A model generated the notes under the pieces. The model saw only the letters and a list, made by a program, of their open reading frames with translations. It was not told the origin of the DNA and searched no databases. 64,000 bases of DNA from Candidatus Nomurabacteria bacterium RIFCSPHIGHO2_02_40_30 (lineage in GTDB: Bacteria; Patescibacteriota; Minisyncoccia; Phycocordibacterales; UBA9973), in assembly GCA_001785445.1 (NCBI GenBank), contig MFTV01000010.1:101566-165565 (forward strand). The letters run 5' to 3'. A program made the position numbers and the translations under genes. Shown here piece by piece: positions 4,155-64,000 of the stretch; within the stretch, counting starts at the first letter, position 1, and every line of letters starts with the position of its first letter.

Positions 4155-4493
4155 CTACTCTCCTTTAAAAGACTGCAGGACAGCGCTTACGACGGCAAGC
4201 ACAATGCCGAAGAGGAATGCTGACAAAAAGCCATCTACTGCAAATCCTGGCACTACGTAGGCTGCAAGCATTATCAAGATGCCATTTATGACTAAGACAA
4301 AAAGTCCAAGCGTCAGAACAGTAAGAGGTAAAGTGAACATTATCAGTATTGGACGCAAGAAAACATTAATAACTCCTAGCACCACAGCTACGATCAATGC
4401 TGACAAAAAGCCATCGACATGCACTCCGGGCAAAACATATGCACTTATTAATATTGCGAGAGCCGACACAACCCAATGTATAATTGTTTTCAT
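4155..4493 (-). CDS. DUF360 / phage-holin-4-like 4-TM membrane protein
   Basis: Internal duplication 'AYVLPGVHVDGFLSALIVAVVLGVIN' / 'AYVVPGFAVDGFLSAFLFGIVLAVVS'. Overlaps the miaA stop by 4 nt (same operon). Confidence 0.55.
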   Translation of the reverse strand: MKTIIHWVVSALAILISAYVLPGVHVDGFLSALIVAVVLGVINVFLRPILIMFTLPLTVLTLGLFVLVINGILIMLAAYVVPGFAVDGFLSAFLFGIVLAVVSAVLQSFKGE

Positions 4494-5368
4494 AATACGT
4501 TTATTATAACATATGTTTTTAATTTGGAAGCATCAAACCATGTAATTTCTTTATCTCTTTTAAACCATGTCTTCTGGCGTTTGGCGTATTTGTGAATTTC
4601 TGAATTTAATTTTTCTAGCATCTCCTTTTTATTAATTTTATTTTGTAAATACAAAGCCATGAATCTGTACTCCAATCCCAATTCCTCCATTCTTTTCCAA
4701 GACAGCCCTTGCTTATGAAGTTTTTTTGCTTCATTTAACATACCCATTTTGATTCTTGTCAGCAGTCTTTTTTCTATTTTATTCTTTAACTTAGCTGTGG
4801 GCAAATATAAGCCAATCTTTATAAAGTTAAACGGAAGCCTTGCTTCCGTTTCTTTTGGTACTTTGCCTAGAGCCTTGGCTATCTCTACGGCTCTAATTAG
4901 CCTGACTTTGTTTTTGGCATCTATAGTTTTCGCTCTTTGCGGATCTAATTTCTTCAATGTTAGAAACAATGTTATCGCAGATTTTGTAACAAGTTGCTTT
5001 CGTAGTTTAATATTTGGCGGAACTTCTGGGAAAATAATGCCCTTGGTAACAGCATCTATATAAAACCCTGTACCACCGCAAATTATCGGAGTCTTGCCTC
5101 TTTTTACAATATCAGCCATGGCTGATATTGCCAGTTTTTGATACTTCACAACAGTGAATTTTATTTTTGGATTTGCTACATCAAGTAGGTGATGTGGGAC
5201 CCCCTCCATTTCTTTTTTGGTGATTTTACCGCTACCTATATTAAGATTTTTATAAACCTGCCTAGAATCAGCAGAAATTATTTCACCGTTTATTTTTTTA
5301 GCAATTTTTACTGCTAGATCGCTTTTGCCTGCAGCAGTTTGCCCTAGAATTACAATAACTTTTTGCAT
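4490..5368 (-). CDS. miaA: tRNA dimethylallyltransferase
   Basis: P-loop 'ILGQTAAGKSDLA' and 'SADSRQVYK' motifs. ATG confirmed at 5366-5368 (minus strand). Confidence 0.85.
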   Translation of the reverse strand: MQKVIVILGQTAAGKSDLAVKIAKKINGEIISADSRQVYKNLNIGSGKITKKEMEGVPHHLLDVANPKIKFTVVKYQKLAISAMADIVKRGKTPIICGGTGFYIDAVTKGIIFPEVPPNIKLRKQLVTKSAITLFLTLKKLDPQRAKTIDAKNKVRLIRAVEIAKALGKVPKETEARLPFNFIKIGLYLPTAKLKNKIEKRLLTRIKMGMLNEAKKLHKQGLSWKRMEELGLEYRFMALYLQNKINKKEMLEKLNSEIHKYAKRQKTWFKRDKEITWFDASKLKTYVIINVL

Positions 5369-9336: not shown

Positions 9337-11586
9337 TTATTTCATTTTGTTTAGTCTGTCTGGGCGATAGTTAGAACACTTATTACTACTACACCTTTCA
9401 GGTATAGTTTTTGTGCCTTCCATCATCAAAGACCCGCATTCTTTACAGACGTTGCCTGTAGGTTTGGCTTTGATGGCAAATTTACAGTCAGGGTAATTTG
9501 AACAAGAATAGAAAATTCCAAATCTTCCACGGCGCTCCGAAATGTCTCCCTTTTTACAAGTAGGGCAGATTACTCCAGTGCGTTTTTTTGCTTCTTCAGC
9601 CTCATCTTTCTTAATGAATTTACATTTTGGATAGCGAGAGCAAGAAATAAAGCTACCAGTGCCGTCTCGACGCTGTCGTATAACCAAAACCCCTTTTTCT
9701 TTCGGTTTACCTTTTTTTCCTGCCCCGTTGGAAGTACTCTTTCCTTCGGGGTCTCCACAATCAGGACACATTTCTCCGGTTTCTTTAGGGCCTTTTAATT
9801 CTGTGCCGTCAAGCATGAGGGCACCATCACAATCTGGATATTTGGAGCAAGAATAAAACTTACCTCCCCGTGAGAGTTTGATAATCATAGCGCTGCCACA
9901 TTTCGGACATTTCATATTCTCCGGAGCATCACCCAAGTTTGTAGCCTTTTCCAGCTTCTCTTTTGATTTTACGTCTTTAAGAAATGGTCCGTAAAAATCT
10001 TTCAATGTTTTCTCGTATTCGCGTTCACCTCGAGAAATTTCATCCAATTCATTTTCCATCTCAGCCGTAAAGCTATCAGATATATAACTCATAAAATGTT
10101 TCTCCAAGAAATCTGATACGACTTCACCTGTATCGGTGGGGAATAGTGTTTTACCTTCTTTGTTTACATAGCCTCTCTCTTCTATGGTCCTCATGATAGA
10201 CGCATAAGTAGACGGCCTGCCGATGTCTCTAGCCTCTAGTTCTTTGATTAAACCGGCTTCACTATATCTCCCTGGTGGCTCTGTAAACTTTTCTTCATTA
10301 TTTAGATCAAGTAACTTTAACTCTTCTCCAGTCTTGCAGATAGGCAATTCTACATCATCTCCGCGCGCGTCACTATCTATCGCGAGCCATCCTGGGAAAA
10401 GAAGCCGAGAGCCATTGGCAGTGAAGTCAGGTAATTCCTCATGCCCTTTTATCACCGCAGAAATTTTTGTTTTTAATAACTTTGCATCAGTCATCTGAGA
10501 AGAGATGGCTCGATCCCAAATTAGTCTATAGAGTCTGTCTTGGTCATCGCTACCAGCGGTAAGATTTTCTACATGTGTGGGACGAATAGCTTCGTGCGCT
10601 TCTTGAGCATTCTTGGATTTGGTTTTATAAATTCTGGCTTCAGCATATTCCTTGCCGTATTTTTTCTCCACGAAATTAATTATTTGAGTTTGCGCCACTG
10701 TGCCCAAGTTTGTACTGTCTGTTCGCATGTACGTTATATGTCCGGCTTCATAAAGTTTCTGCGCTATTTGCATTGTGCGTGAAGGGGAATAGCCGAGGCG
10801 TGAACTTGCAGTCTGCTGAAGAGTGGAGGTGGTAAATGGGGCGCGAGGGGAGCGTTTTTGCTCAGACTCTTTAACCGCACTTACAATCCAAGTGCCATTT
10901 TTTCCTTCAGTCATTATTTTCTCAACTAGTTTCGGGTCTCTCGGTTCTTCACTACACTCTAAAGTTATTTTGTCTCTCTTTATTGTTTCGAATAAACCAA
11001 ATATTCTCCAAAATTTTTCCGGAACAAAAGCTCGTATTTCTCTTTCTCGTTCCATAATTATACGCAATGCAGGAGACTGCACACGGCCAGCCGAGAGTCC
11101 GTAGCGTACCTTTTTCCAAATCAAACCAGAAAGGTCGTAACCAACGAGGCGATCTAATACTCGGCGCGCTTCTTGAGCTTTGCGTAAGTGAGTGTCTATT
11201 TTTCTCGGGTTTTGCAATGCTTCTTCTACGGCTTCTTTAGTTATCTCGTGAAAGGTGACTCGCGCTATCGGCGCTTTCACTTTTTTGTCTTGTTTCAAAA
11301 GTGTCTCTATGTGCCAAGCTATCGCTTCGCCTTCACGATCGGGGTCGGTAGCCAAAAGAACATCAGTCGCCTTTTCTGCCAACCCTTGCAGTTCGTGGAC
11401 AACTTTTTCTTTACCTTTAGAAACTTCGTAATGGGGGATAAAGCCACCTTCTATGTCGATGGCAATTTTATTTGATTTGGGTAAATCACGCACATGCCCC
11501 ACAGATGCGCGAACAGTAAATGCGCCTTCGAGATATTTCTCAATAGTTTTTGCTTTTGATGGTGATTCCACTATTAATAATTTCAT
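9337..11586 (-). CDS. topA: DNA topoisomerase I
   Basis: N-terminal Toprim 'MKLLIVESPSKAKTIEKYLEG' and several C-terminal Zn-ribbon CxxC...CxxC repeats. Confidence 0.9.
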   Translation of the reverse strand: MKLLIVESPSKAKTIEKYLEGAFTVRASVGHVRDLPKSNKIAIDIEGGFIPHYEVSKGKEKVVHELQGLAEKATDVLLATDPDREGEAIAWHIETLLKQDKKVKAPIARVTFHEITKEAVEEALQNPRKIDTHLRKAQEARRVLDRLVGYDLSGLIWKKVRYGLSAGRVQSPALRIIMEREREIRAFVPEKFWRIFGLFETIKRDKITLECSEEPRDPKLVEKIMTEGKNGTWIVSAVKESEQKRSPRAPFTTSTLQQTASSRLGYSPSRTMQIAQKLYEAGHITYMRTDSTNLGTVAQTQIINFVEKKYGKEYAEARIYKTKSKNAQEAHEAIRPTHVENLTAGSDDQDRLYRLIWDRAISSQMTDAKLLKTKISAVIKGHEELPDFTANGSRLLFPGWLAIDSDARGDDVELPICKTGEELKLLDLNNEEKFTEPPGRYSEAGLIKELEARDIGRPSTYASIMRTIEERGYVNKEGKTLFPTDTGEVVSDFLEKHFMSYISDSFTAEMENELDEISRGEREYEKTLKDFYGPFLKDVKSKEKLEKATNLGDAPENMKCPKCGSAMIIKLSRGGKFYSCSKYPDCDGALMLDGTELKGPKETGEMCPDCGDPEGKSTSNGAGKKGKPKEKGVLVIRQRRDGTGSFISCSRYPKCKFIKKDEAEEAKKRTGVICPTCKKGDISERRGRFGIFYSCSNYPDCKFAIKAKPTGNVCKECGSLMMEGTKTIPERCSSNKCSNYRPDRLNKMK

Positions 11587-25495: not shown

Positions 25496-28429
25496 ATGAT
25501 TTCACGGATATATGTAATGCCTAAAGATAAGGGTACACGGGCAGATTCTTACCTTATTGACTCTAAATTGTCCTTAAAAGAACTCACGAAGCTGGCTAAT
25601 GCCCTTACGAATCCGATTCTAGAAAAATATTATATAAATGAACCCCTGAAAGTGGGGAATTTTTCTTATGCGATTGAAATAGGTTATAAACCGGGAGTAA
25701 CGGATAACGTAAGTCACACTGTTAAAGAAATTGCTACAGATTTACTTAACTTGAAAAAGCACACGGACTTTCAAGTATATACTTCCAAGATTCTTTTCAC
25801 TTCCGGCAATAAAGAAAGGACAGAAAAATTTGCTCTTGAATTGTATAATCCGCTTATTGAGCGAGCCAATATAGCGCAGATTAAAAACGGAAAAATAAAT
25901 TTTCCCAATAAAGCTCCAAAGGTAATTCTTGAAAAAAGAAAACTGGTTGTAAAAGTTCCGCTTAATGTTTCCGATGAAGAACTTATAAAGATAGGAACTT
26001 TGGGAATCAAAGAAGGGAATATTCGGCGCGGGCCGCTGGCGCTCGACTTAGCTTCAATGCACGCCATAAAAGAATACTTTGCCAAACTAAAAAGAACACC
26101 AACGGACATTGAGCTTGAAGCTTTGGCGCAGACATGGTCGGAACACTGCAAGCACACTATTTTTGCGAATCAGATAGATGATATACAAGAAGGGCTATAC
26201 AAGACTTATATAAAAGGAGCGACAAATCTTATCCGTAAACAAAAAAGAGAGAGAGGTCAGCAGGATTTTTGCGTTTCTGTTTTTTCTGATAATTCCGGTG
26301 GAATAATTTTTGACAAAGATTTCTTAATAACCCACAAAGTTGAAACACACAACTCTCCTTCTTTCTTAGATCCGTTTGGAGGAGCTATTACCGGCATTGT
26401 GGGAGTGAATCGCGACACGATAGGCTTCGGGCTGGGGGCTAAGCCAGTGGCTAATACTTACGGATTTTGTTTTGGCGAACCGGACGAAAAAAGGCATCTA
26501 TATTTAGATAAAGAACAAAAGCAAAAAATGCTCCTGCCAAAACGAATCATGGATGGTGTGATAAAAGGCATAAACGTTGGGGGGAACTGCTCTGGTATTC
26601 CGACTATTTCCGGATTTGTAAAATTTGACGAAAGATACAGAGGTAGGCCACTTGTGTTCGCCGGAACAGTAGGATTGATACCGAAAAAAATTGGAGCAAG
26701 ACTTTCTCATGAAAAAAAGGCAAAACCTAGGGACTGTGTCGTAATCATTGGGGGTAGAACAGGAGCAGATGGTATCCATGGAGCCACATTTTCTTCTGTT
26801 GCCACAGATTTTAATTCACCGGCCACGGCAGTGCAAATTGGTGACCCGATAACCCAGAAAAAGTTAAGTGATGCAATAATAAAAGAAGCCCGAGATATGA
26901 ATTTATATAACAGCATCACGGACATCGGTGGCGGTGGAATGTCTTCTTCGGTAGCAGAAATGGCTAAAGAGTCCGGCGGGGTTAAAGTTGATTTGGAAAA
27001 AGTTCCGCTAAAATATCCGGGGCTTCGGCCGTGGGAAATATGGATTTCAGAATCACAGGAACGCATGACTCTCGCTGTGCCGAAGAATAAAATAAAAAAA
27101 CTTTTCAAACTTTTGGAAAGTCGTGAAGTGGAAGCTACGGTAGTGGGAGAATTTACCAATTCCGGCAAGTGTGTGCTCTATTACAAAGGTAAAAAAATAA
27201 TGGACATGGACATGGAGTTCTTACATAACGGACTACCAAAGCATCATTTAAGAACCTCACCCCCGCCCGCGTTAGCAGACCTCCCCCTCTCCTTGGCAAG
27301 GAGAGGGGCTAGAGGTGAGGTATACACAAAAGATCTTGAGAATTTACTTGGAAGTAAAAATCTAAATGGATTTTCTTTCATCTCCGAACAATATGACCAC
27401 GAAGTGCAGGGATCATCTGTGCTAAAACCTCTTTCGGGTCCGGGACGTATCAACACTGACGCCCAAGTTTTCCGTCCAGTTTTAAATTCAAACAAAGGAG
27501 TTGTATTGTCATCTGCACTTTATCCTTCGTATGGAGACATCAGCACCTACGACATGGCTGCTTGTGCGCTTGACACTACTGTTCGAAACGCAGTTGCTTC
27601 TGGCGGCACTCTTTCTCACCTCGCTATATTAGACAACTTCTGTTGGTGCTCTTCGTATGACAAAACACGGCTATATCAGCTCGTAGAAGCTGTAAAAGCC
27701 TGTTATGACTACGCTGTGGGCTATGGCACCCCATTTATTTCTGGCAAGGACAGTATGTTTAATGATTTTAAGGGTTATGACGAGAAGGGTAATCCTGTGG
27801 CCATTTCTATCCCTCCGACGCTTCTAATATCTGCCATAGGGGTAGTGTCGGACTTTTATAAAGTTGTTTCGCCGGAATTCAAAAATGCGGGAGATATAAT
27901 ATATTTGCTAGGAGAAACTCATGATGAACTTGGAGCAAGTGAATACTATAAGATGCTTGGAGAAATTGAAAATAACCCCGCACCAGAGCAAGCTCGGTAC
28001 GGGGCAAGTGTTCCGAAAGTTAACTTAGAAAAAAATCTAAAAACATATCTGGCGCTGGAAAAAGCGATTCAAAAAGAATTGTTGAATTCTTCTCTTTCTG
28101 TAACTTCCGGAGGCTTCGGAATTGCATTGGCAAAAGCCTGTGTTGGCGGAATGCTCGGATGTAAAATAAATGTAGAAAGCATGTCTGCGGGCTCAAATTC
28201 GGCCATGGTGAAGCTTTTCTCTGAAAGCCAAGGGAGGGTATTGGTATCCGTACCTCCTAAAAATACAAGGGAATTTGAAAAAATATTTAAGGATATATCG
28301 AATGCCAGGCTCGGAACAGTTTCCAAAGACAACAAATTTATAATAACAGAAGATAATAAAAAAATAGTGGATTCGTCCGTAAAAAAGCTGTACGACATTT
28401 ATCATAAGTTTTCCAATTCAATGCAATGA
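25496..28429 (+). CDS. purL: Phosphoribosylformylglycinamidine synthase, PurS-PurL fusion (977 aa)
   Basis: ATG at 25496; the ORF-track start at 25355 would overlap kbl. N-terminal ~120 aa is PurS-like, followed by the PurL AIRS domains. Contains an in-frame GC-rich palindromic insert at 27279-27316. Confidence 0.85.
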   Translation: MISRIYVMPKDKGTRADSYLIDSKLSLKELTKLANALTNPILEKYYINEPLKVGNFSYAIEIGYKPGVTDNVSHTVKEIATDLLNLKKHTDFQVYTSKILFTSGNKERTEKFALELYNPLIERANIAQIKNGKINFPNKAPKVILEKRKLVVKVPLNVSDEELIKIGTLGIKEGNIRRGPLALDLASMHAIKEYFAKLKRTPTDIELEALAQTWSEHCKHTIFANQIDDIQEGLYKTYIKGATNLIRKQKRERGQQDFCVSVFSDNSGGIIFDKDFLITHKVETHNSPSFLDPFGGAITGIVGVNRDTIGFGLGAKPVANTYGFCFGEPDEKRHLYLDKEQKQKMLLPKRIMDGVIKGINVGGNCSGIPTISGFVKFDERYRGRPLVFAGTVGLIPKKIGARLSHEKKAKPRDCVVIIGGRTGADGIHGATFSSVATDFNSPATAVQIGDPITQKKLSDAIIKEARDMNLYNSITDIGGGGMSSSVAEMAKESGGVKVDLEKVPLKYPGLRPWEIWISESQERMTLAVPKNKIKKLFKLLESREVEATVVGEFTNSGKCVLYYKGKKIMDMDMEFLHNGLPKHHLRTSPPPALADLPLSLARRGARGEVYTKDLENLLGSKNLNGFSFISEQYDHEVQGSSVLKPLSGPGRINTDAQVFRPVLNSNKGVVLSSALYPSYGDISTYDMAACALDTTVRNAVASGGTLSHLAILDNFCWCSSYDKTRLYQLVEAVKACYDYAVGYGTPFISGKDSMFNDFKGYDEKGNPVAISIPPTLLISAIGVVSDFYKVVSPEFKNAGDIIYLLGETHDELGASEYYKMLGEIENNPAPEQARYGASVPKVNLEKNLKTYLALEKAIQKELLNSSLSVTSGGFGIALAKACVGGMLGCKINVESMSAGSNSAMVKLFSESQGRVLVSVPPKNTREFEKIFKDISNARLGTVSKDNKFIITEDNKKIVDSSVKKLYDIYHKFSNSMQ
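27279..27316. repeat. GC-rich perfect inverted repeat inserted in frame within purL
   Basis: Arms cccctctccttg (27284-27295) and caaggagagggg (27297-27308), 1-nt centre, flanked by outer acctc/gaggt. GC over 65% in a ~37% GC gene. Encodes 'SPPPALADLPLSLARRGARGEV'. Confidence 0.6.
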
Positions 28430-41943: not shown

Positions 41944-43674
41944 ATGATAAGAAAAATGTTCAAAAAAAAGAATAGTGACAAACACTTTTTCGTGGAGCCC
42001 GACGAGATTTTTCTTGACTCAAAAAATTTGCAAAATTTTGACCGTCAGCAATTCGAGGGACGAATAGAAAAATCAATACCTAAAAAGAACATTTTATTTC
42101 TTGGGATTTTATTCCTGCTTTTTTCTGTAACATTTGGCAGCCGTCTGATATATCTGCAAATCCAAAAAGGGGAAGCGTACTTGAAAAGAAGCGAAAATAA
42201 TATTTTAGACAAAGTTATTATCTTTACCGAGAGAGGAATAATCTATGACAGAAATAATGTAAAGCTGGCTTGGAACAGTAGAAATTCGGACGTTGGACGT
42301 CTGAATTCCGGACGTCCAACGTCCGAATCTGAAAACATGCCTATTCGCACATACATGTCACCCGGATTTTCTCATGTATTGGGTTACGTTAGTTACCCAG
42401 CCAAAGACAAGGACGGCAACTATTGGCAAACTGAATTTATGGGTAAAGACGGCTTAGAAAAAGAATACAACGACAAAATCAAAGGAGAAAATGGCTCAAA
42501 AATAATAGAAATAAATGCGTTAAAAGAAATAAATTCCGAAAATATCATAAACATTCCAAAACGAGGGAATAACTTGGTTACAAGTATTGACTCAAAAATT
42601 CAGAAAGAATTGTTTACTTTAATTAAAAATCTGGCAGAAAATAATAACTTTACCGGTGGAGCTGGGATAATAATGGATGTCAGAAATGGAGAAATACTGA
42701 CTTCTACCAGCTTCCCAGAATATAATTCCGAAACTTTATCTCTTGGAGAAGATATATCAGCGATCAATAAGTATATAAACGATAAAAGAAAATTCTTTAT
42801 GGATAGAACTGTTTCCGGACTTTATACTCCAGGCTCGATCGTTAAGCCATTTTTCGCGCTTGGAGCTCTAACTGAAGGCATTATTGACCAATATAAAAAA
42901 ATTCTTTCGACTGGTTCCATCTCAATCCCAAACCCTTATTTTAAAGACCAAAAGACTGTTTTCAAAGACTGGAGAGTAAACGGCTGGACAGATATGAGGG
43001 AGGCTTTGGCTGTTTCTTCTGATGTTTACTTTTACTCTATTGGCGGGGGCTACGGCGACCAAAGAGGCCTTGGTATAACCAATATTGGCAAGTATGCCAG
43101 CCTCTTCGGCATTGGAGAAGCAACTGGGATTGATTTGCCGGACGAAAAAAAGGGCACCATCCCGTCTCCGCAATGGAAAATAGAAAATTTTCAAGGAGAC
43201 CCTTGGCGCATTGGAGACACTTATCATACGGCTATCGGACAATATGGATTCCAAGTTACTCCGGTAGAAATAGTCCGCGCCGTAGCGGCTATAGCAAGTT
43301 ATGGCAAAATGTTAACTCCGCATTTTATACTCAATGACAAAGAAAAGGAAAATAAAACTTCTACAGTCAACTTAAAAAAAGAATACTTTGACATTGTGCG
43401 TGAAGGAATGAGAAAAGCAGTGACAACGGGCACGGCGACAATACTGAATGTGCCCTATGTGCATGTCGCTGTGAAAACCGGAACAGCAGAGCTCGGAGTG
43501 GCTAAAAATAAAGTGAACTCTTGGGTGATGGGCTTCTTGCCGTACGAAGACCCTAAGTACGCTTTCGTGATTATTATGGAGTCGGGCCCCTCGACCGGCG
43601 GCGCTAATGCGTCTTCTGTCATGCGAGGTCTCTTGGACTGGATGTACCTTAACACACCGGAATATTTCGATTAA
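41944..43674 (+). CDS. Penicillin-binding protein 2 / peptidoglycan D,D-transpeptidase
   Basis: N-terminal TM, dimerisation domain, transpeptidase motifs 'SIVKP' (SxxK) and 'KTGT'. Contains an in-frame GC-rich palindrome at 42284-42328. Confidence 0.8.
   Translation: MIRKMFKKKNSDKHFFVEPDEIFLDSKNLQNFDRQQFEGRIEKSIPKKNILFLGILFLLFSVTFGSRLIYLQIQKGEAYLKRSENNILDKVIIFTERGIIYDRNNVKLAWNSRNSDVGRLNSGRPTSESENMPIRTYMSPGFSHVLGYVSYPAKDKDGNYWQTEFMGKDGLEKEYNDKIKGENGSKIIEINALKEINSENIINIPKRGNNLVTSIDSKIQKELFTLIKNLAENNNFTGGAGIIMDVRNGEILTSTSFPEYNSETLSLGEDISAINKYINDKRKFFMDRTVSGLYTPGSIVKPFFALGALTEGIIDQYKKILSTGSISIPNPYFKDQKTVFKDWRVNGWTDMREALAVSSDVYFYSIGGGYGDQRGLGITNIGKYASLFGIGEATGIDLPDEKKGTIPSPQWKIENFQGDPWRIGDTYHTAIGQYGFQVTPVEIVRAVAAIASYGKMLTPHFILNDKEKENKTSTVNLKKEYFDIVREGMRKAVTTGTATILNVPYVHVAVKTGTAELGVAKNKVNSWVMGFLPYEDPKYAFVIIMESGPSTGGANASSVMRGLLDWMYLNTPEYFD
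42284..42328. repeat. GC-rich perfect 18-bp inverted repeat inserted in frame within the PBP2 gene
   Basis: Arms attcggacgttggacgtc (42284-42301) and gacgtccaacgtccgaat (42311-42328), 9-nt spacer tgaattccg. Encodes 'RNSDVGRLNSGRPTSE'. Confidence 0.6.
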
Positions 43675-45879: not shown

Positions 45880-45899
45880 ATATTTGTGTTAAAATAATT

Positions 45900-45927
45900 A
45901 CATAATACATTACGTAATGTATTATGT
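45900..45927. promoter_or_regulatory. Perfect 28-bp palindrome centred on TTACGTAA, in the divergent rpmA / Ada-like promoter region
   Basis: acataatacaTTACGTAAtgtattatgt is its own reverse complement. The same core motif recurs at 61365-61398. Confidence 0.45.
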
Positions 45928-45946
45928 AACCAATATAGACTAATAT

Positions 45947-50945: not shown

Positions 50946-51740
50946 TTAGACCACTTCCACTATACCGCTGAAAACGGACACGGCGGGGCCGCGCATGATT
51001 ATGTCGCCTTGTTCGTTTTCAGACATATATAATTTTCCGCCCGGTAATTCTATGATGAGTTCTACATCAGCGTTTTTATATTTCCTAGCTGCCGCGTACA
51101 CTGCGCAGGCTCCTGTACCACAGGCAAGAGTCGCCCCGCATCCCCTCTCCCAGACTTTTACTTTAAATTCGTTAGAACTTTTTTGCTCCACAAACTCAAC
51201 ATTTATTTTATTTGGAAAAATTTTATTGTTTTCTATCTTAGGACCCAGTGTAGGTAAGTCATATTTGTCCAAATCTTTTACAAAAGTTATGGCATGTGGG
51301 TTGCCGACAGAAACAAAATTAAAATCGAATCCTTCTAATTTTGTATTTTTATCCGGAAAATCTGTGTGCACAAAAACAGCTTTCCCCATATTTACCGAAA
51401 AAGTATGGTCATCATTATATTTTATTTCTTTTGTACCTGCGCGTGTATCTATTGTAAATTTAGTTTTATTTTTTGAAAAATTGTCTTTCAAAAATTTTGC
51501 TACACAGCGCACACCGTTTCCGCACATCTCGGCTAGTGTTCCATCAGAATTATAATAATTCATAAAGCAGTCCCCTTTTTCTGAAGATTCAACTAAAATA
51601 ACGCCATCACCTCCTATGCCTTTATTTCTGTCACAGAGAAAAATAATTTGCTCTTTTGATAAAACAATTTTCCCATTTATATTATCAATGACTACAAAGT
51701 CGTTCCCCAGTCCATGCATTTTTGTAAAGCCTATATTCAT
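50946..51740 (-). CDS. dapF: Diaminopimelate epimerase
   Basis: Motif 'FTKMHGLGNDFVVID' and two catalytic Cys regions. Confidence 0.85.
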   Translation of the reverse strand: MNIGFTKMHGLGNDFVVIDNINGKIVLSKEQIIFLCDRNKGIGGDGVILVESSEKGDCFMNYYNSDGTLAEMCGNGVRCVAKFLKDNFSKNKTKFTIDTRAGTKEIKYNDDHTFSVNMGKAVFVHTDFPDKNTKLEGFDFNFVSVGNPHAITFVKDLDKYDLPTLGPKIENNKIFPNKINVEFVEQKSSNEFKVKVWERGCGATLACGTGACAVYAAARKYKNADVELIIELPGGKLYMSENEQGDIIMRGPAVSVFSGIVEVV

Positions 51741-52639
51741 ATATGTATTAAAGTTCCTTCAGATTCTAAGTCCCAAAACGGCCTTACTTGCAGAGGAATT
51801 TTTTTCTCTTTTACTTCCCTTAAAGTTTTCGGATGTACCAAGCCAACAGCATTAAACTCCAAATGTTTTTCAAAATCGTCATAGGTTATAAAATCTATTT
51901 TTTGGACATTTTCATTGCCGGCTAGTTTGGGATTTTTGTCCATAACCCCCGGCACATCTTTCCAAAGAACTACTTTGCTCGCATTCATAAGATTGCCCAG
52001 AATCCCCGCAGTGTAGTCGCTACCCTCGCGTCCCAGAGTCGTCATGCCTTCTTCGCAAAAACCGATAAATCCCTCGGTGACAATGTTTTTATGCGTAATA
52101 AATATTTCTTCTTTTATTTGTACTTTTAGATTTTCATTGGTGGCTTTTTTATCAACATTCGCGATATTAAAATTCGAATCTGTCTTGAGGAAATCAGTCG
52201 CATGGACAAGCTTGTTTTTTATACCAACATGAGAAAGGTATTCGCTGGCAACCAAAGAGCTCAATATTTCCCCATAGGGAACAATTTGGTCATAAATAAA
52301 CTTTTTATCTTCGCCTCGCCCTATTAAATACAGTCTCTCTTGCATCTTTTTAAAAAGATCTTCAATTATGCCGAAGGTCACATGCCCCTCGGGAAAAAGA
52401 TCTCGCGCAATTTCCAAATGAAAAGCTTTTAATTCATGCATTATCTTGCTACTTTCATTGGTGTCTCCACTCGCATAATTATGTAATATTTTTTCTAAGT
52501 TGTTTGTGGTCTTGCCAAAAGCGGAAAATACATTCATGGAATTTCCATGAATGTGCTTCTCGAAAGTTTTCGGCAAATGTCTGATGGCTTTAGCACTACT
52601 CATAATTCCGCCACCAAATTTGTTTATAATTAAGGACAT
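51737..52639 (-). CDS. lysC: Aspartokinase, catalytic amino-acid-kinase domain only (no ACT domains)
   Basis: Motifs 'INKFGGGIMSS' and 'LGREGSDYTAG'. Ends '...EGTLIHI' where ACT domains normally begin. Start placed at 52639 (MSLIINKFGG) to avoid overlapping asd. Confidence 0.8.
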   Translation of the reverse strand: MSLIINKFGGGIMSSAKAIRHLPKTFEKHIHGNSMNVFSAFGKTTNNLEKILHNYASGDTNESSKIMHELKAFHLEIARDLFPEGHVTFGIIEDLFKKMQERLYLIGRGEDKKFIYDQIVPYGEILSSLVASEYLSHVGIKNKLVHATDFLKTDSNFNIANVDKKATNENLKVQIKEEIFITHKNIVTEGFIGFCEEGMTTLGREGSDYTAGILGNLMNASKVVLWKDVPGVMDKNPKLAGNENVQKIDFITYDDFEKHLEFNAVGLVHPKTLREVKEKKIPLQVRPFWDLESEGTLIHI

Positions 52640-52643
52640 AATT

Positions 52644-53651
52644 TTATATAAGGTTATTATTACACAAGTACTCGGCAATCTGCACTGCATTCGTGGCAGC
52701 GCCTTTGCGCAGATTGTCCGCCACGATCCACATATTTAGGGTTTTAGGATTTGATTCGTCACGGCGGAGCCTGCCGACAAAAACTTCATCCTTTCCTTCT
52801 GCATATATGGGCATGGGATATTTTAAATTCTGCACATCGTCTACAACCACAACTCCAGGCATTTCGGAAAGTAATGACCTTACTTTTTCCAGATCATATT
52901 CTTCTTTGAACTCCACATTCACTGACTCCGAATGCCCGCCGATAACTGGAATCCGAACAGCAGTGGTAGTTATACATATGCTTTCATCACCTAAAATTTT
53001 TCTGGTTTCATTTTCCATTTTCATTTCTTCTTTGGTGTAGCCGTTTGGAAGAAAAATGTCAACTTGGGGAATTAAATTTAAGTCAATCGGGTAGGCATAC
53101 GCCATCTCACCCTCTACTCCTCTCCTTTCATTCATGAGCTGGTCCACTGCGCCTTTCCCTGTACCGGTAACTGACTGATAGGTGGAGACAACTATTCTTT
53201 TTATTCCAAACTCTTTATGGAGCGGATAAAGCGCGAGAACCAATTGCGTCGTCGAACAATTCGGTTTGGCAATAATTTTGTCTTCTTTGGTTAAAATACT
53301 GCCATTTACCTCAGGTATTATAATTTTTTTAGAAGGATCCAGCCTCCACGCCGAAGAACTATCAATCACTATTGCGCCAGCTTCCACGAAAAATGGAGCC
53401 CACTCCAGAGATACTGCCGAACCAGCGGAAAAAAAAGCGATGTCCGGCTTCCCTGCTAGCGCATCTTCGATGGAGATGATTTTATGCGACACTCCGTTAA
53501 AAGTTATTTCTTTGCCAACTGATTTTTGGCTTGCTATTGGAAGCAACTCTGAAACAGGAAAATTTCTTTCTTCCAAGATTTTTAGTATAGTCCTGCCGAC
53601 AAGACCGGACGCTCCAATTATTGCAACTTTTTTCTTATTATTATTTAGCAT
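52644..53651 (-). CDS. asd: Aspartate-semialdehyde dehydrogenase
   Basis: Motif 'VAIIGASGLVGRTILKIL' and catalytic Cys region 'KPNCSTTQLVLAL'. Confidence 0.85.
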   Translation of the reverse strand: MLNNNKKKVAIIGASGLVGRTILKILEERNFPVSELLPIASQKSVGKEITFNGVSHKIISIEDALAGKPDIAFFSAGSAVSLEWAPFFVEAGAIVIDSSSAWRLDPSKKIIIPEVNGSILTKEDKIIAKPNCSTTQLVLALYPLHKEFGIKRIVVSTYQSVTGTGKGAVDQLMNERRGVEGEMAYAYPIDLNLIPQVDIFLPNGYTKEEMKMENETRKILGDESICITTTAVRIPVIGGHSESVNVEFKEEYDLEKVRSLLSEMPGVVVVDDVQNLKYPMPIYAEGKDEVFVGRLRRDESNPKTLNMWIVADNLRKGAATNAVQIAEYLCNNNLI

Positions 53652-60392: not shown

Positions 60393-61364
60393 ATGACTTA
60401 CGATTTAATTATTATCGGGGGTGGACCGGCCGGCGCGGCGGCGGCAGTTTACGCTGCTCGTAAAAGACTACAGACGCTCTTTATTACCAGCGAGTGGGGC
60501 GGGCAAAGTGTAGTCTCCGAGCAAATTTACAACTGGATTGGCACCACTTCCCTCTCGGGAAATGAATTAGCAGAAAATTTTAAAAAGCATGTATTGGCAA
60601 ATGCCATAGGTACTGAAAACCTGAAAGAGGCTGAAGATTTGGGCTCTACGCTTTTAGTAAAAGAAGGTGAAAAAGTAATTTCTCTCACAAGGACAGTCCT
60701 TGAAAATTCCTTTGAAGTTACAACAGAAAATGGCGAGAAATTTTTAGCTAAGACAATTCTAATAACTAGCGGCAGCGGTAGAAGAAAACTTGAGGCAAAG
60801 AATGCCGACAGACTAGAACATAAAGGACTCACTTACTGCGCCTCTTGCGACGGGCCTCTTTTTACCGGTCAGGATGTCGCGGTAGTGGGCGGCGGGAACG
60901 CTGGGTTTGAAACTGCTGCCCAGCTTCTGGCCTATTGTAAATCCGTAACCCTTCTGCACCGTAGTGAGTCTTTTGATAAAGCTGATGAAATTACCGTTGA
61001 TAAAGTTTTGAAAAACCCAAAAATGAAAGCGGTAAAAAATGTGGAAATTTTGGAAATACAAGGCGATAAATTTGTCGAAGGAATAGTATATAAAGACAGA
61101 GCTACCAGCCAAGAAACAGAATTGAAGGTCTCCGGTATTTTCGTGGAAATCGGGCAAATTCCAAATACTAACTTTGTGAAAGATTTGGTTCCGCTTGACG
61201 AAATCGGACGTATAAAAATAAATCCGTTAAATCAAAAAACTTTAGTCCCCGGCATCTGGGCTGCCGGCGACTGCACTGATGTGCTCTATCATCAAAACAA
61301 CATCGCCGCCGGTGATGCCGTCCGCGCCCTCGAAGATATTTATTTGGCAATTCATACTAAATAG
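60393..61364 (+). CDS. trxB: Thioredoxin reductase-like FAD/NAD(P) oxidoreductase
   Basis: Motif 'YDLIIIGGGPAGAAAAVYAAR', redox 'CASCDG', second Rossmann 'VAVVGGGNAGFETA'. ATG at 60393; the ORF-track start 60264 is a 5' over-extension. Confidence 0.8.
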   Translation: MTYDLIIIGGGPAGAAAAVYAARKRLQTLFITSEWGGQSVVSEQIYNWIGTTSLSGNELAENFKKHVLANAIGTENLKEAEDLGSTLLVKEGEKVISLTRTVLENSFEVTTENGEKFLAKTILITSGSGRRKLEAKNADRLEHKGLTYCASCDGPLFTGQDVAVVGGGNAGFETAAQLLAYCKSVTLLHRSESFDKADEITVDKVLKNPKMKAVKNVEILEIQGDKFVEGIVYKDRATSQETELKVSGIFVEIGQIPNTNFVKDLVPLDEIGRIKINPLNQKTLVPGIWAAGDCTDVLYHQNNIAAGDAVRALEDIYLAIHTK

Positions 61365-61398
61365 TTACGTAATCTATTACGTAATACATTACGTAACC
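61365..61398. promoter_or_regulatory. Tandem array of three TTACGTAA palindromic octamers at 12-bp spacing
   Basis: gTTACGTAAtctaTTACGTAAtacaTTACGTAAcc. Lies directly after the trxB stop and ~25 bp upstream of the -35 of the riboswitch promoter. Confidence 0.45.
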
Positions 61399-62035: not shown

Positions 62036-64000
62036 ATGAAGAAAAAAATATTAAAAATAGGTTTTAGTTTTCTAACAATTTTATTTTTGGGAAGCTTTTT
62101 TGCATCAACAACATTCGCAGCGAATGATGCCTCGGCTATAATTTCCCCCACTGCGGCTTCTACGAACCAAAATCAAACATACACATACACTGTGACCAAC
62201 GGCAGTGCCTCCACTGCCAATCTTGGTTCAGTAGAGATTGTCTTGCCATCCGGATTCGGAACTCCTTCTTCTATAAGTATTTCTTCCGTATCATCCAGTA
62301 AGACATGGTTATTAGGTTCTACCGACGGATATACTAACGGCTTCAATGCATCTACAAGTAAAATTGGAATACAAGCCAGTGGAGCTAGTGATAAGCTCGA
62401 TGTAAACGAATTTGTGGCAGTGCAAGTCACCTCCACTGCGCCCTCTAGCGCGGGGTCGTATGAATGGACTGCTTCTCCCCTTGCTAATCTGGGTTTTAGC
62501 GGCACTCTTTTTAATTTAACTTCTTCGCAACCCACTGTAAATGTTACCGCTCCTGTAACGGTAACGTTCATAATTAGAAATGGCGACACTGTTCTTTACA
62601 ATGGATCCGTCGCTCTTCCCGCTTCAGGCACTGTGTCAATTACCGATTCAAATAGTGTGGCTCATAATGTAAATACCAGAAGTGTCTTGGCTATTTTGAA
62701 AAATATCGATGATGCCAGTAGCGACTTTTCAATTTCCAATTTGCAATACTTTAACTCATTCAATTCGTTTTATCTTAAATGCATACTGCCGAACGGCAGC
62801 TCGGAACTTTGTGATAATTGGCAGTACGCTGTGGGTAGCGTTACTCCCTTCTCTAGTATTGATGCTAGTATACTCTCCGGCGGAGAAACAGTGGGGATTT
62901 ATTTTGGCAACTCGCATCAGCTTGTACTTTCTGCCAACACCATTATTACTGGCGGGTCGTTAAATGTAGCCGCACAATCGTATGACTATGCAAATAATAC
63001 TTGGAATCCACTTACTGGAGTAAATGTGGGTGTAACCTTGCCGAATCCTAATGACCCATGGAGCCCGATTGTTGTTTCGACCCACGCAGTCGATAGCCTT
63101 GGAAATACAAATATTTCACTGTCAACTATAAACACATATACCATTGGCATTGCGGAAGATTTTTATTTTCCTTCTTATAGCCTTACAGTTTCTCCGGTGC
63201 CAAGTGGCACCGGAGGCGGAGGAGCAGTTGTAACACTGCCGTCATCTTTTGACACCTCAAATGCAATTGCTTATTTAAAAAGTGTGCAAGGCGCTGATGG
63301 CTCACTTGGTGACTCTCTTCTCTATAGCGATTGGGCGGCAATTGCTTATGGAGCCCTAAATGTGACTGGTAGCCCAAAAGATAAGCTCCTCACTTACTTT
63401 GATTCTAATAATACAATAAGTTCCCTCTTGACCGACAATGAAAGACATGCCATGGCGCTTCTGGCTCTTGGGCAAAATCCTTATTCATATAACGGCGTAA
63501 ACTATATTAATGCTATCATCAACAGCTTTGACGGCACGCAATTCGGCGACGCAAATTTGATAAATGACGACATCTTCGCGCTTATTCCCCTGGCAAATTC
63601 CGGCTATACTGTAAAGGACGAAATAATTATTAAAGATGTTAATTTTTTAATTTCCAAACAAAAAACAAACGGCTCCTGGGAAGAAAGTGTGGACATAACA
63701 GCGGCGGCAATTCAAGCCTTAAAATCTTTTGAATCCATTGCTGGCATTTCTGGCGCTCTCACAAAAGCGACTGACTATATTATAAGTAAGCAAATTAATG
63801 ACGGCGGCTTTGGAGGTATTTACTCTACAAGCTGGGTAATGCAAGCCATGAGCGCCCTTGGCACGTCGTGGAGCAAGAATAACCACACCCCCATGGACTA
63901 CCTTGCTCTACAGCAGGTAGCAGACGGAGCCGTACTTCCCTCATCCGAAACTCTGCAAAATCGCATTTGGGCTACAAGTTATGCAGTTACGGCGACTTCT
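62036..64000 (+). CDS. Large secreted transcobalamin-like protein: signal peptide, Ser/Thr-rich domain, DUF4430 domain, alpha/alpha-toroid repeats. 3' end truncated by the window.
   Basis: Open frame from ATG 62036 to the window end, with no stop; hand-translated. Signal peptide 'MKKKILKIGFSFLTILFLGSFFASTTFA'. DUF4430-like 'CDNWQYAVGSVTPF...GGETVGIYFG'. Toroid repeats 'ISKQKTNGSWEE' and 'ISKQINDGGFGG'. Not in the ORF track because it has no stop in the window. Confidence 0.6.
   Translation, partial: MKKKILKIGFSFLTILFLGSFFASTTFAANDASAIISPTAASTNQNQTYTYTVTNGSASTANLGSVEIVLPSGFGTPSSISISSVSSSKTWLLGSTDGYTNGFNASTSKIGIQASGASDKLDVNEFVAVQVTSTAPSSAGSYEWTASPLANLGFSGTLFNLTSSQPTVNVTAPVTVTFIIRNGDTVLYNGSVALPASGTVSITDSNSVAHNVNTRSVLAILKNIDDASSDFSISNLQYFNSFNSFYLKCILPNGSSELCDNWQYAVGSVTPFSSIDASILSGGETVGIYFGNSHQLVLSANTIITGGSLNVAAQSYDYANNTWNPLTGVNVGVTLPNPNDPWSPIVVSTHAVDSLGNTNISLSTINTYTIGIAEDFYFPSYSLTVSPVPSGTGGGGAVVTLPSSFDTSNAIAYLKSVQGADGSLGDSLLYSDWAAIAYGALNVTGSPKDKLLTYFDSNNTISSLLTDNERHAMALLALGQNPYSYNGVNYINAIINSFDGTQFGDANLINDDIFALIPLANSGYTVKDEIIIKDVNFLISKQKTNGSWEESVDITAAAIQALKSFESIAGISGALTKATDYIISKQINDGGFGGIYSTSWVMQAMSALGTSWSKNNHTPMDYLALQQVADGAVLPSSETLQNRIWATSYAVTATS

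Follow-up and report, generated by a model that had tools for sequence, protein, structure and literature searches.

In-frame BoxC/PIT-type triplex repeat in the PurL linker of a groundwater Nomurabacteria genome

The stretch of DNA considered here (the window, 64,000 nucleotides of contig MFTV01000010.1 from Candidatus Nomurabacteria bacterium RIFCSPHIGHO2_02_40_30, a groundwater member of the candidate phyla radiation (CPR)) contains, inside the essential gene purL, a 68-bp palindromic element at 27254-27321. As judged from its sequence, this element is one copy of a known family of G/C-rich intrastrand-triplex repeats, described as BoxC, as potential intrastrand triplex (PIT) elements (Hoyne and Maher 2000, 2002, as relayed by PMC4666352) or as the triplex motif (TM). 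The unit of the family comprises a pyrimidine arm, a purine arm and a mirror-symmetric, G/T-rich third strand, which in the window copy appears to be GGTGAGGT. We consider it probable, at roughly three chances in four, that a BoxC/PIT/TM copy entered the PurL linker as DNA, displaced native linker sequence, is read through and persists.

The host gene (25496-28429, plus strand) encodes a 977-residue PurL of the PurSL type with FGAR-AT_linker, AIRS and AIRS_C domains. The element, which is assigned to neither strand, has the order ACCTCACC-cccgcccgcgttagcagacct-CCCCTCTCCTTG-g-CAAGGAGAGGGG-ctaga-GGTGAGGT and encodes the PurL peptide TSPPPALADLPLSLARRGARGEV; its parts are described here on the plus strand. 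The left outer arm ACCTCACC (27254-27261) is 100% complementary to the right outer arm GGTGAGGT (27314-27321), and on the minus strand would itself provide the triplex third strand. It is followed by a variable spacer, cccgcccgcgttagcagacct (27262-27283), the remnant of the family's second, variable hairpin, which pairs well on the minus strand only (GTCTGC/GCGGGC, with G:T pairs). The conserved hairpin consists of the pyrimidine arm CCCCTCTCCTTG (27284-27295), which is the same in the orthologous loci L001 and L003, a single loop nucleotide at 27296 (g in the window, c in L001 and a in L003) and the purine arm CAAGGAGAGGGG (27297-27308), 100% complementary to CCCCTCTCCTTG. A second loop, CTAGA (27309-27313), separates the purine arm from the right outer arm, the putative purine-motif third strand, which is mirror-symmetric to AGGAGAGG of the purine arm. 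Since a third segment is present on both strands of the window copy, the two segments make an outer stem. The original prediction, made from the sequence without database searches, that a perfect 12+12-bp inverted repeat with complementary outer arms lies within PurL is thus borne out, as both the inner palindrome (27284-27308) and the 8+8-bp outer arms are perfect. Ten of the 12 bp in the hairpin stem are pure pyrimidine/purine pairs (CCCCTCTCCTT/AAGGAGAGGGG), and the loop measures 1-3 nt. The G+C content at the element is 0.68, compared with 0.387 across the window. The window holds five perfect hairpins of 12 bp or more, whereas 60 first-order Markov simulations lead one to expect 0.13, and the 25-mer palindrome had no chance matches in 100 shuffles. 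When the DNA and RNA were folded, as had been suggested at the outset, the element formed structure on both strands: as single-stranded DNA the 68 bp gave -17.1 kcal/mol (plus strand) and -21.1 kcal/mol (minus strand), and as RNA -33.1 and -45.5 kcal/mol, respectively.

Assignment to the BoxC/PIT/TM family is based on geometry as well as on sequence. The Escherichia coli motif, TM_ECO, reads CCCTCTCCC-TGT-GGGAGAGGG-CCG-GGGTGAGGG (PMC4666352, Holder et al. 2015, Table 1), a sequence that we verified in the hrpB-mrcB spacer of strain MG1655. The window copy shares with it the pyrimidine arm, the purine arm and the G/T mirror third strand, in the near-identical blocks CCCTCTCC / GGAGAGGG / GGGTGAGG. 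The placement of GGTGAGGT agrees with that of GGGAGAGGG-CCG-GGGTGAGGG; the third strand of the window copy makes eight of eight consecutive valid triads (G.G, A.A and T.A, antiparallel), and the E. coli control nine of nine. The single strand of the window copy that is the triplex candidate is CCCCTCTCCTTGGCAAGGAGAGGGGCTAGAGGTGAGGT, in which the third segment could occupy the groove, giving a triple helix of the purine motif. Such a helix is formed in vitro by the TM single strand, with a melting temperature of 70-82 °C (PMC4666352). Among the fetched loci, 126 of 169 core hairpins had a third strand of at least eight triads within 8 nt, as against 2 of 308 control windows. A covariance model built from 39 copies of many phyla gave the window element 61 bits (E 2.5e-14), and the outer arms of the ACCTCACC/GGTGAGGT type were 96% paired over these 39 copies, with C-G to U-A double changes.

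From the copies in PurL and in other genes a full design emerges, in which an outer stem ACCTCACCC(C)/(G)GGGTGAGGT encloses a conserved hairpin, CCCTCTCCTT-NNN-AAGGAGAGGG, and a second, variable hairpin (GGCC-GAAA-GGCC, GTCC-GAAA-GGAC and others) whose side depends on orientation. The left arm is conserved as ACCTCACCC(C) in the copies of cyanobacteria, CPR, Bacteroidota and others. A large number of copies amount to half a unit with a single arm, comprising the hairpin, one to five nucleotides and then GGGTGAGGT. Features held in common with BoxC/PIT are variable loops, inverted arrangements, occurrence on both strands, a high copy number in cyanobacteria and the lack of an associated transposase; the TM motif has been found in more than 260 genomes, is abundant in cyanobacteria and has no link to transposons, phages or plasmids (PMC4666352). 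There are also differences. In E. coli BoxC consists of two inverted units with a spacer, whereas the CPR and cyanobacterial form is one hairpin with a third strand on both sides and a variable second hairpin, and the stem ends with TT/AA here but with C/G there. Furthermore, all 23 E. coli copies are intergenic (PMC4666352), while the copies described here are in frame in an essential gene and, in other CPR, in dus, uvrD, rarA and femAB-like genes. The purL copy is thus not intergenic, but we regard the intergenic site as a property of the E. coli copies and not as a structural definition of the family.

Several other identities for the element were considered. A strand-specific structured RNA or ribozyme was dropped on the basis of a negative test of G:U against A:C asymmetry, as 54 copies gave similar numbers of G:U pairs on the two strands (27 and 25, p = 0.32), which argues against strand-specific RNA. 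A search of Rfam found no family at gathering score, the best match, at chance level, being TCV_Pr with 18.9 bits against a threshold of 40. A DNA uptake sequence was rejected as there are too many different palindromes, an integron attC or dif site as the consensus does not match, and translational bypass as the frame is continuous.

That the element is an insertion is indicated by its orthologues. We aligned 120 PurL orthologues and extracted the linker DNA from 69 loci (designated by L numbers), the site being defined as the variable stretch between FLHNGLPKHHL and TKxLExLL; in the window it ends at TKDLENLL, and the element occupies residues ~587-609. Alignments to the Thermotoga maritima PurL structures end at query residue 587, and the linker is gapped when Thermus thermophilus 3VIU is aligned to PurL. 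An AlphaFold2 model (60-sequence alignment; mean predicted local distance difference test score 51, predicted template modelling score 0.43) was too poor for the loop and was not used. Most of the 69 orthologues have a uniform, unstructured, AT-rich linker of 75-78 nt that encodes PYxxxxPEPKLPKxxSR, and the element-free linkers mostly fold between ~0 and -13 kcal/mol, although a single GC-rich outlier reaches -17.7 kcal/mol. The linkers of about 27 of the 69, as counted from the listing, are longer and GC-rich, folding at -16 to -76 kcal/mol. The existence of element-free relatives with a uniform AT-rich linker supports the proposed insertion. The original prediction placed it correctly in a linker but regarded it as an addition of ~22 residues, which does not stand: the equivalent segment measures 93 nt in the window against 78 nt in most orthologues, and given a 68-nt element ~53 nt of native linker have been replaced, for a net gain of only five codons. 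Codon choice also differs between the two groups. Element-free orthologues encode T[ST]P in AT-rich codons of the ACA TCT CCA type, whereas element-bearing ones always have ACC TCA CCC, indicating that the TSP tripeptide is part of the element.

An assembly or sequencing artefact, for which no evidence was found, is already refuted, and its probability is negligible: an independent groundwater assembly (L004) has the identical sequence, related copies occur in unrelated metagenomes, and the insert peptide is the same in all eight full-length members of the species-level PurL cluster, one of which is represented on 75 contigs. The element is fixed in the species across many independent assemblies.

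The insertions in the orthologues were not confined to one position or one orientation. In the window and in L001, L003, L066, L080 and L023 the element directly follows the residue after HL, but it is found after TEPIKF in L025, TKPLEP in L034 and TEPP in L069, and both orientations occur. In a rough neighbour-joining tree element-bearing PurLs are dispersed among element-free ones, the window and L001 being sisters, and truncated or decayed copies are present in L025, L036 and L069. On comparison of these sequences the PurL linker is a hot spot, where insertion has taken place at four or more separate points and in both orientations, and where palindromes of several unrelated families are found. 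The presence of several insertion points and both orientations in a single 26-codon linker among related species provides direct comparative evidence of insertion into new sites.

The unrelated palindromes in the linker include CCCCTCCT-caata-AGGAGGGG, 21+21-bp palindromes of the AACTTGGAGG... type in L073 and L077, and a clean 27-nt palindrome of the CCTCGGCCGTAGCCCTACGGGCGAGG type. In L049 (11819-11943) a second palindrome, CCCCCTTATCAGGGG...CCCCTGATAAGGGG, is nested in the loop of a BoxC-type hairpin, giving a PurL linker of 50 residues. The linkers of L005/L048, L033, L040 and L059 contain, as a clean insertion after 'EP', an imperfect palindrome of 27 nt centred on GTAG/CTAC, CCTCGGCCRTAGNCCTACGGGCGAGG; it encodes LG(R/H)SxTGEA, and the copy at 10150-10180 of L033 is read in another frame as PSAIDLRAR.

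Perfectly symmetric arms might also have been born in place, through template switching or quasi-palindrome correction when a Pro/Gly-rich linker is replicated. The palindromes of L073 and L077 differ from each other by compensatory changes on both arms, indicating that arm-to-arm correction does operate. The outer arms and mirror third strand of the window element, however, match a family whose members are spread over many phyla and lie both in other genes and between genes, and the element-free linkers from which it would have had to arise are AT-rich and of unrelated sequence. An origin in place is thus very improbable.

The related peptides PLSLPRRGERGEVY, PLSLTRRGVRGEV and SLSRRGAGGEV stand at the same place in orthologues that are 69-76% identical, an observation that at first sight speaks against a lineage-specific insertion and would suit an old, vertically inherited linker motif under selection at the protein level, with the DNA symmetry incidental. 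At the DNA level these peptides derive from one and the same family of repeats, in part by inheritance and in part independently, and thus do not represent a conserved protein feature. Conservation is at the level of nucleotides and not of amino acids, the distribution in the PurL tree is patchy, and the same DNA is found in three frames in other proteins as well as outside genes. The data on frame and context refute a protein motif in practice, and we consider it scarcely credible.

The breadth of the family was apparent in a scan for the core in one genome per species, which returned at least 120 loci in cyanobacteria, Bacteroidota, Ignavibacteria, Armatimonadota, Chloroflexi, more than 10 CPR lineages, Bathyarchaeia and others, with the same outer arms; the core was also present on a further 28 viral contigs. 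BLAST of the consensus returned one unannotated plasmid match and no phage match, the low-complexity filter probably hiding matches. Among the matches listed, Nostoc, Rivularia, a Bacteroidota metagenome-assembled genome (MAG) and some CPR MAGs contain several copies per genome. In other CPR genomes, in-frame copies were identified in Dus, UvrD/PcrA, MgsA/RarA, FemAB-like and Wzy-like genes, and another lies at a purN-purD junction. The Dus copies of two genomes (L066 and L089) occupy the same site in opposite orientation. Across host genes the core is read in all three frames, as PLSLxRRG, PLLxKERG and PSPxKGEG. Again among the matches listed, 11 of 22 CPR copies lie inside open reading frames (ORFs) of at least 150 residues, compared with 18 of 116 in other phyla; in E. 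coli the number is 0 of 23 (PMC4666352). The original claim that a selfish palindrome colonizes coding DNA is supported by the element-free orthologues and by this spread over other genes, intergenic DNA, many phyla and three frames, from which we infer that the repeat is mobile.

Some of these loci merit description in their own right. In six phage contigs (L205, L214, L215, L226, L227 and L232) a BoxC-type unit directly follows the major capsid gene, at a median of 15 nt from the Phage_cap_E ORF, and L206, a 7.3-kb viral contig with a Mu-type portal gene, carries five copies. The CPR UvrD/PcrA gene of L152 (833-4228) has an in-frame BoxC-type element at residue ~97 and also an intein (Intein_splicing/Hint, residues ~277-643). 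In a Bacteroidota MAG, non-coding stretches of up to ~1 kb (L087, 2100-3050; L109, 230-980) hold three to four BoxC-type elements together with other shared repeats. The arms of all copies resemble a Shine-Dalgarno/anti-Shine-Dalgarno duplex (AAGGAG... and GAGGT versus CCTCC-like), a likeness that is closer still in the PLLNKEG type, CCCCTCCTT-AAC-AAGGAGGGG.

In the sequence of events that we favour, the repeat would have inserted as DNA into the linker that joins the PurL halves in an ancestor of this Nomurabacteria lineage, and most of the native 26-codon AT-rich linker would then have been lost. The symmetry of the copies and their occurrence in both orientations point to spread by a process at the level of DNA rather than RNA. 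As predicted, the reading frame is open through the element, and peptides expected to span the insert include TSPPPALADLPLSLAR and GEVYTK. As no stop codon interrupts the frame, the element is expected to be read through as a Pro/Leu/Arg/Gly-rich linker, and such an insert would be tolerated because a linker only needs to tether two domains. Its persistence may reflect a near-neutral peptide, weak selection in a small-genome CPR organism and the fact that an imprecise deletion would destroy an essential gene.

The precedent invoked for the element in the original prediction was that of the Rickettsia palindromic elements (RPEs), palindromic repeats that lie in frame within mutually unrelated housekeeping genes of a host-dependent bacterium with a reduced genome (Ogata 2000, 2002, as summarized in PMC10969869). 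The parallel is apt to the extent that both are in frame in unrelated housekeeping genes (here purL, dus, uvrD, rarA, femAB-like and wzy-like), are translated (here presumably), lie in tolerant regions and, for RPEs as far as that summary goes, lack a known transposase. It does not extend to a new RPE-like family, as the element belongs instead to BoxC/PIT/triplex-motif repeats. RPEs are, according to the same summary, ~100-150 bp long and confined to Rickettsia, whereas the element described here is 45-70 bp, G/C-rich, capable of triplex formation and spread across phyla; the two appear unrelated in sequence, a judgement that follows from BoxC/TM membership and not from alignment to RPE sequences. 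Miniature inverted-repeat transposable elements are likewise small and non-coding, with terminal inverted repeats (the outer arms here are 8-10 bp), and are dispersed, in both orientations, with nested insertions; the BoxC-type repeat differs in that we saw no target-site duplication and no parent insertion sequence with matching ends, and in its many one-arm half units. REP/REPIN sequences with RAYT are also short GC-rich palindromes, sometimes in inverted pairs and abundant in some genomes, but the present element has no GTAG/CGTC head, is not confined to extragenic DNA and has no Y1 transposase among the 933 neighbouring ORFs that were clustered. The GC clusters of yeast mitochondria offer a further parallel as mobile, GC-rich palindromes of an AT-rich genome that in some cases lie in frame within coding genes, although they are organellar and presumably unrelated in sequence.

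A number of observations weigh against the view that a mobile repeat simply entered the linker and was left there. Clustering of the 933 ORFs within 2.5 kb of copies revealed no recurrent mobilising gene, the recurrent neighbours being only ABC transporters, glycosyltransferases and phage structural genes, and no mobilising gene is known for BoxC (PMC4666352). The flanks of 12 coding copies contained no target-site duplication. No empty allele was present among the eight full-length PurLs of the species-level cluster, and an empty/filled allele pair could not be defined for the element. The covariance model found one copy only within the 64-kb window, which bears on multi-copy status in the source genome. 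The triplex has gone undetected both in duplex DNA and in vivo in E. coli (PMC4666352, discussion). Two further points concern the purL site itself. The PurLs of the window, L001 and L003 are 72-77% identical as proteins, and their third-position identity at shared four- to sixfold codons is only 0.34-0.47; nevertheless, some 12 arm codons are identical among the three at every third position. A dead insert should decay neutrally, and neutral decay does not predict such arms. By comparison, the spacer is identical to that of the L003 copy at 14 of 21 positions, similar to the gene-wide nucleotide identity of 69%. The second point is that the covariance model found ~20 sites in 1.2 Mb of purL-centred CPR DNA, most of them in the PurL linker, so that copies there are far denser than in the flanking ~1.2 Mb, and more so than simple tolerance predicts.

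These two features may suggest that the host keeps the hairpin or triplex DNA, or the mRNA hairpin, for a local task, such as a pause of the ribosome, RNA polymerase or replication where the two PurL halves meet, or a recombination site. Arms invariant at synonymous sites in three otherwise saturated lineages, and the crowding of copies in the linker, would both be expected of a functional structure, as would the gathering of unrelated palindrome families at three positions of PurL (~aa 57, ~aa 600 and ~aa 890) and the phage units directly behind the major capsid gene, where functional hairpins are typically located. It should be emphasized, however, that more than half of the orthologues lack any palindrome, that the site is occupied in both orientations and by unrelated sequences as well, and that the copies in L025, L036 and L069 are truncated or decayed. 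In addition, PIT elements are described as acting in E. coli neither as promoters nor as terminators and as leaving RNA polymerase unaffected (Hoyne and Maher 2002), and purine-motif triplexes as not forming in RNA (Semerad and Maher 1994), both as cited in PMC4666352. A host function of this kind is therefore improbable. Somewhat less so, though still unlikely, is a combination of the two ideas, whereby BoxC/PIT is active mobile DNA that enters genes in either orientation and the DNA structure itself is maintained in CPR coding regions by host selection or gene conversion. This possibility is raised by arms that are invariant at saturated divergence and by the several palindrome families at three PurL positions; host selection would act on a signal for pausing or recombination where domains meet, whereas conversion would run continuously with live copies as donors. 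Were it correct, the repeats would be a regular source of new inter-domain linker sequence. More generally, the arms may have been conserved by selection, through gene conversion with other copies as donors, or because the repeat re-inserted into this site several times.

The two further hot spots for GC-rich palindromes in PurL, at ~aa 57 and ~aa 890 of the orthologues L001-L084, are occupied by other families. At ~aa 57 they are of the ACTTGGAGG-caaga/aagaa-CCTCCAAGT types, and at ~aa 890 they include CCCCATAGG-caaga-CCTATGGGG, CAGATAGCGC-ctaaa-GCGCTATCTG and perfect 24+24-bp palindromes (L042 and L062). The loop 'caaga' is reused with different stems at these hot spots.

The original prediction also reported a second palindrome of the same type in the PBP2 gene. 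A perfect 18+18-bp palindrome, ATTCGGACGTTGGACGTC-9 nt-GACGTCCAACGTCCGAAT, is indeed present there in frame (42284-42328, plus strand; peptide NSDVGRLNSGRPTSES), but it is unrelated to the purL element and belongs to a separate dispersed repeat family. Its DNA folds at -23.9 kcal/mol (z = -9), and it lies within a loop that is hypervariable in length and sequence; the PBP2 of the window is 100% identical to a protein of RIFCSPLOWO2_02_40_28. Relatives of this palindrome occur in the N-terminal part of purL in L033, a locus of another Nomurabacteria-like genome, where three in-frame copies (10176-10215, 10313-10352 and 10355-10394) encode PDVGRQNPRRTTS and ASVERREPRRPTSG. Elsewhere in the window, perfect palindromes were found at 63192-63215 (CTCCGGTGCCA-ag-TGGCACCGGAG, in a frame that has no stop over 664 residues or more and continues past the window end), at 4829-4851 (AAACGGAAGC-ctt-GCTTCCGTTT) and 5107-5130 (CAATATCAGCCA|TGGCTGATATTG, 12+12 bp), both in a 292-residue ORF (4490-5368, minus strand), and at 52530-52554 (ACATTCATGGAA-t-TTCCATGAATGT, in the ORF at 51737-52690, minus strand). 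Perfect or near-perfect AT-rich palindromes in short non-coding stretches at 45898-45929 and 61364-61397 (TTACATAATACATTAC|GTAATGTATTATGTAA, and repeated TTACGTAAT units) look operator-like and are unrelated to the GC-rich elements.

The repeat found in purL is of a familiar type, but its setting is new, as it lies in frame within essential CPR genes and has recurrently entered one linker. The literature on BoxC reportedly includes work by Bergler in 1992 and Bachellier in the 1990s, and to our knowledge BoxC/PIT has been known for ~30 years without any function or demonstrated mode of movement. A family hitherto known from intergenic DNA is here present in the essential purL of groundwater Nomurabacteria, and its orthologues, in which the site is naturally filled in some and empty in others, could allow the process of insertion to be reconstructed. 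Protein-coding palindromes, so far a curiosity of Rickettsia, are common in CPR bacteria, which are also reduced-genome, host-dependent organisms; this fits with weak selection letting such DNA persist in genes. The Pro/Gly/Arg-rich low-complexity stretches of CPR proteins (PLSLxRRG, PLLxKERG, PSPxKGEG and xGEV) are best taken as repeat DNA and not as protein motifs, and stretches derived in this way will disturb alignments and structure prediction of CPR proteins.

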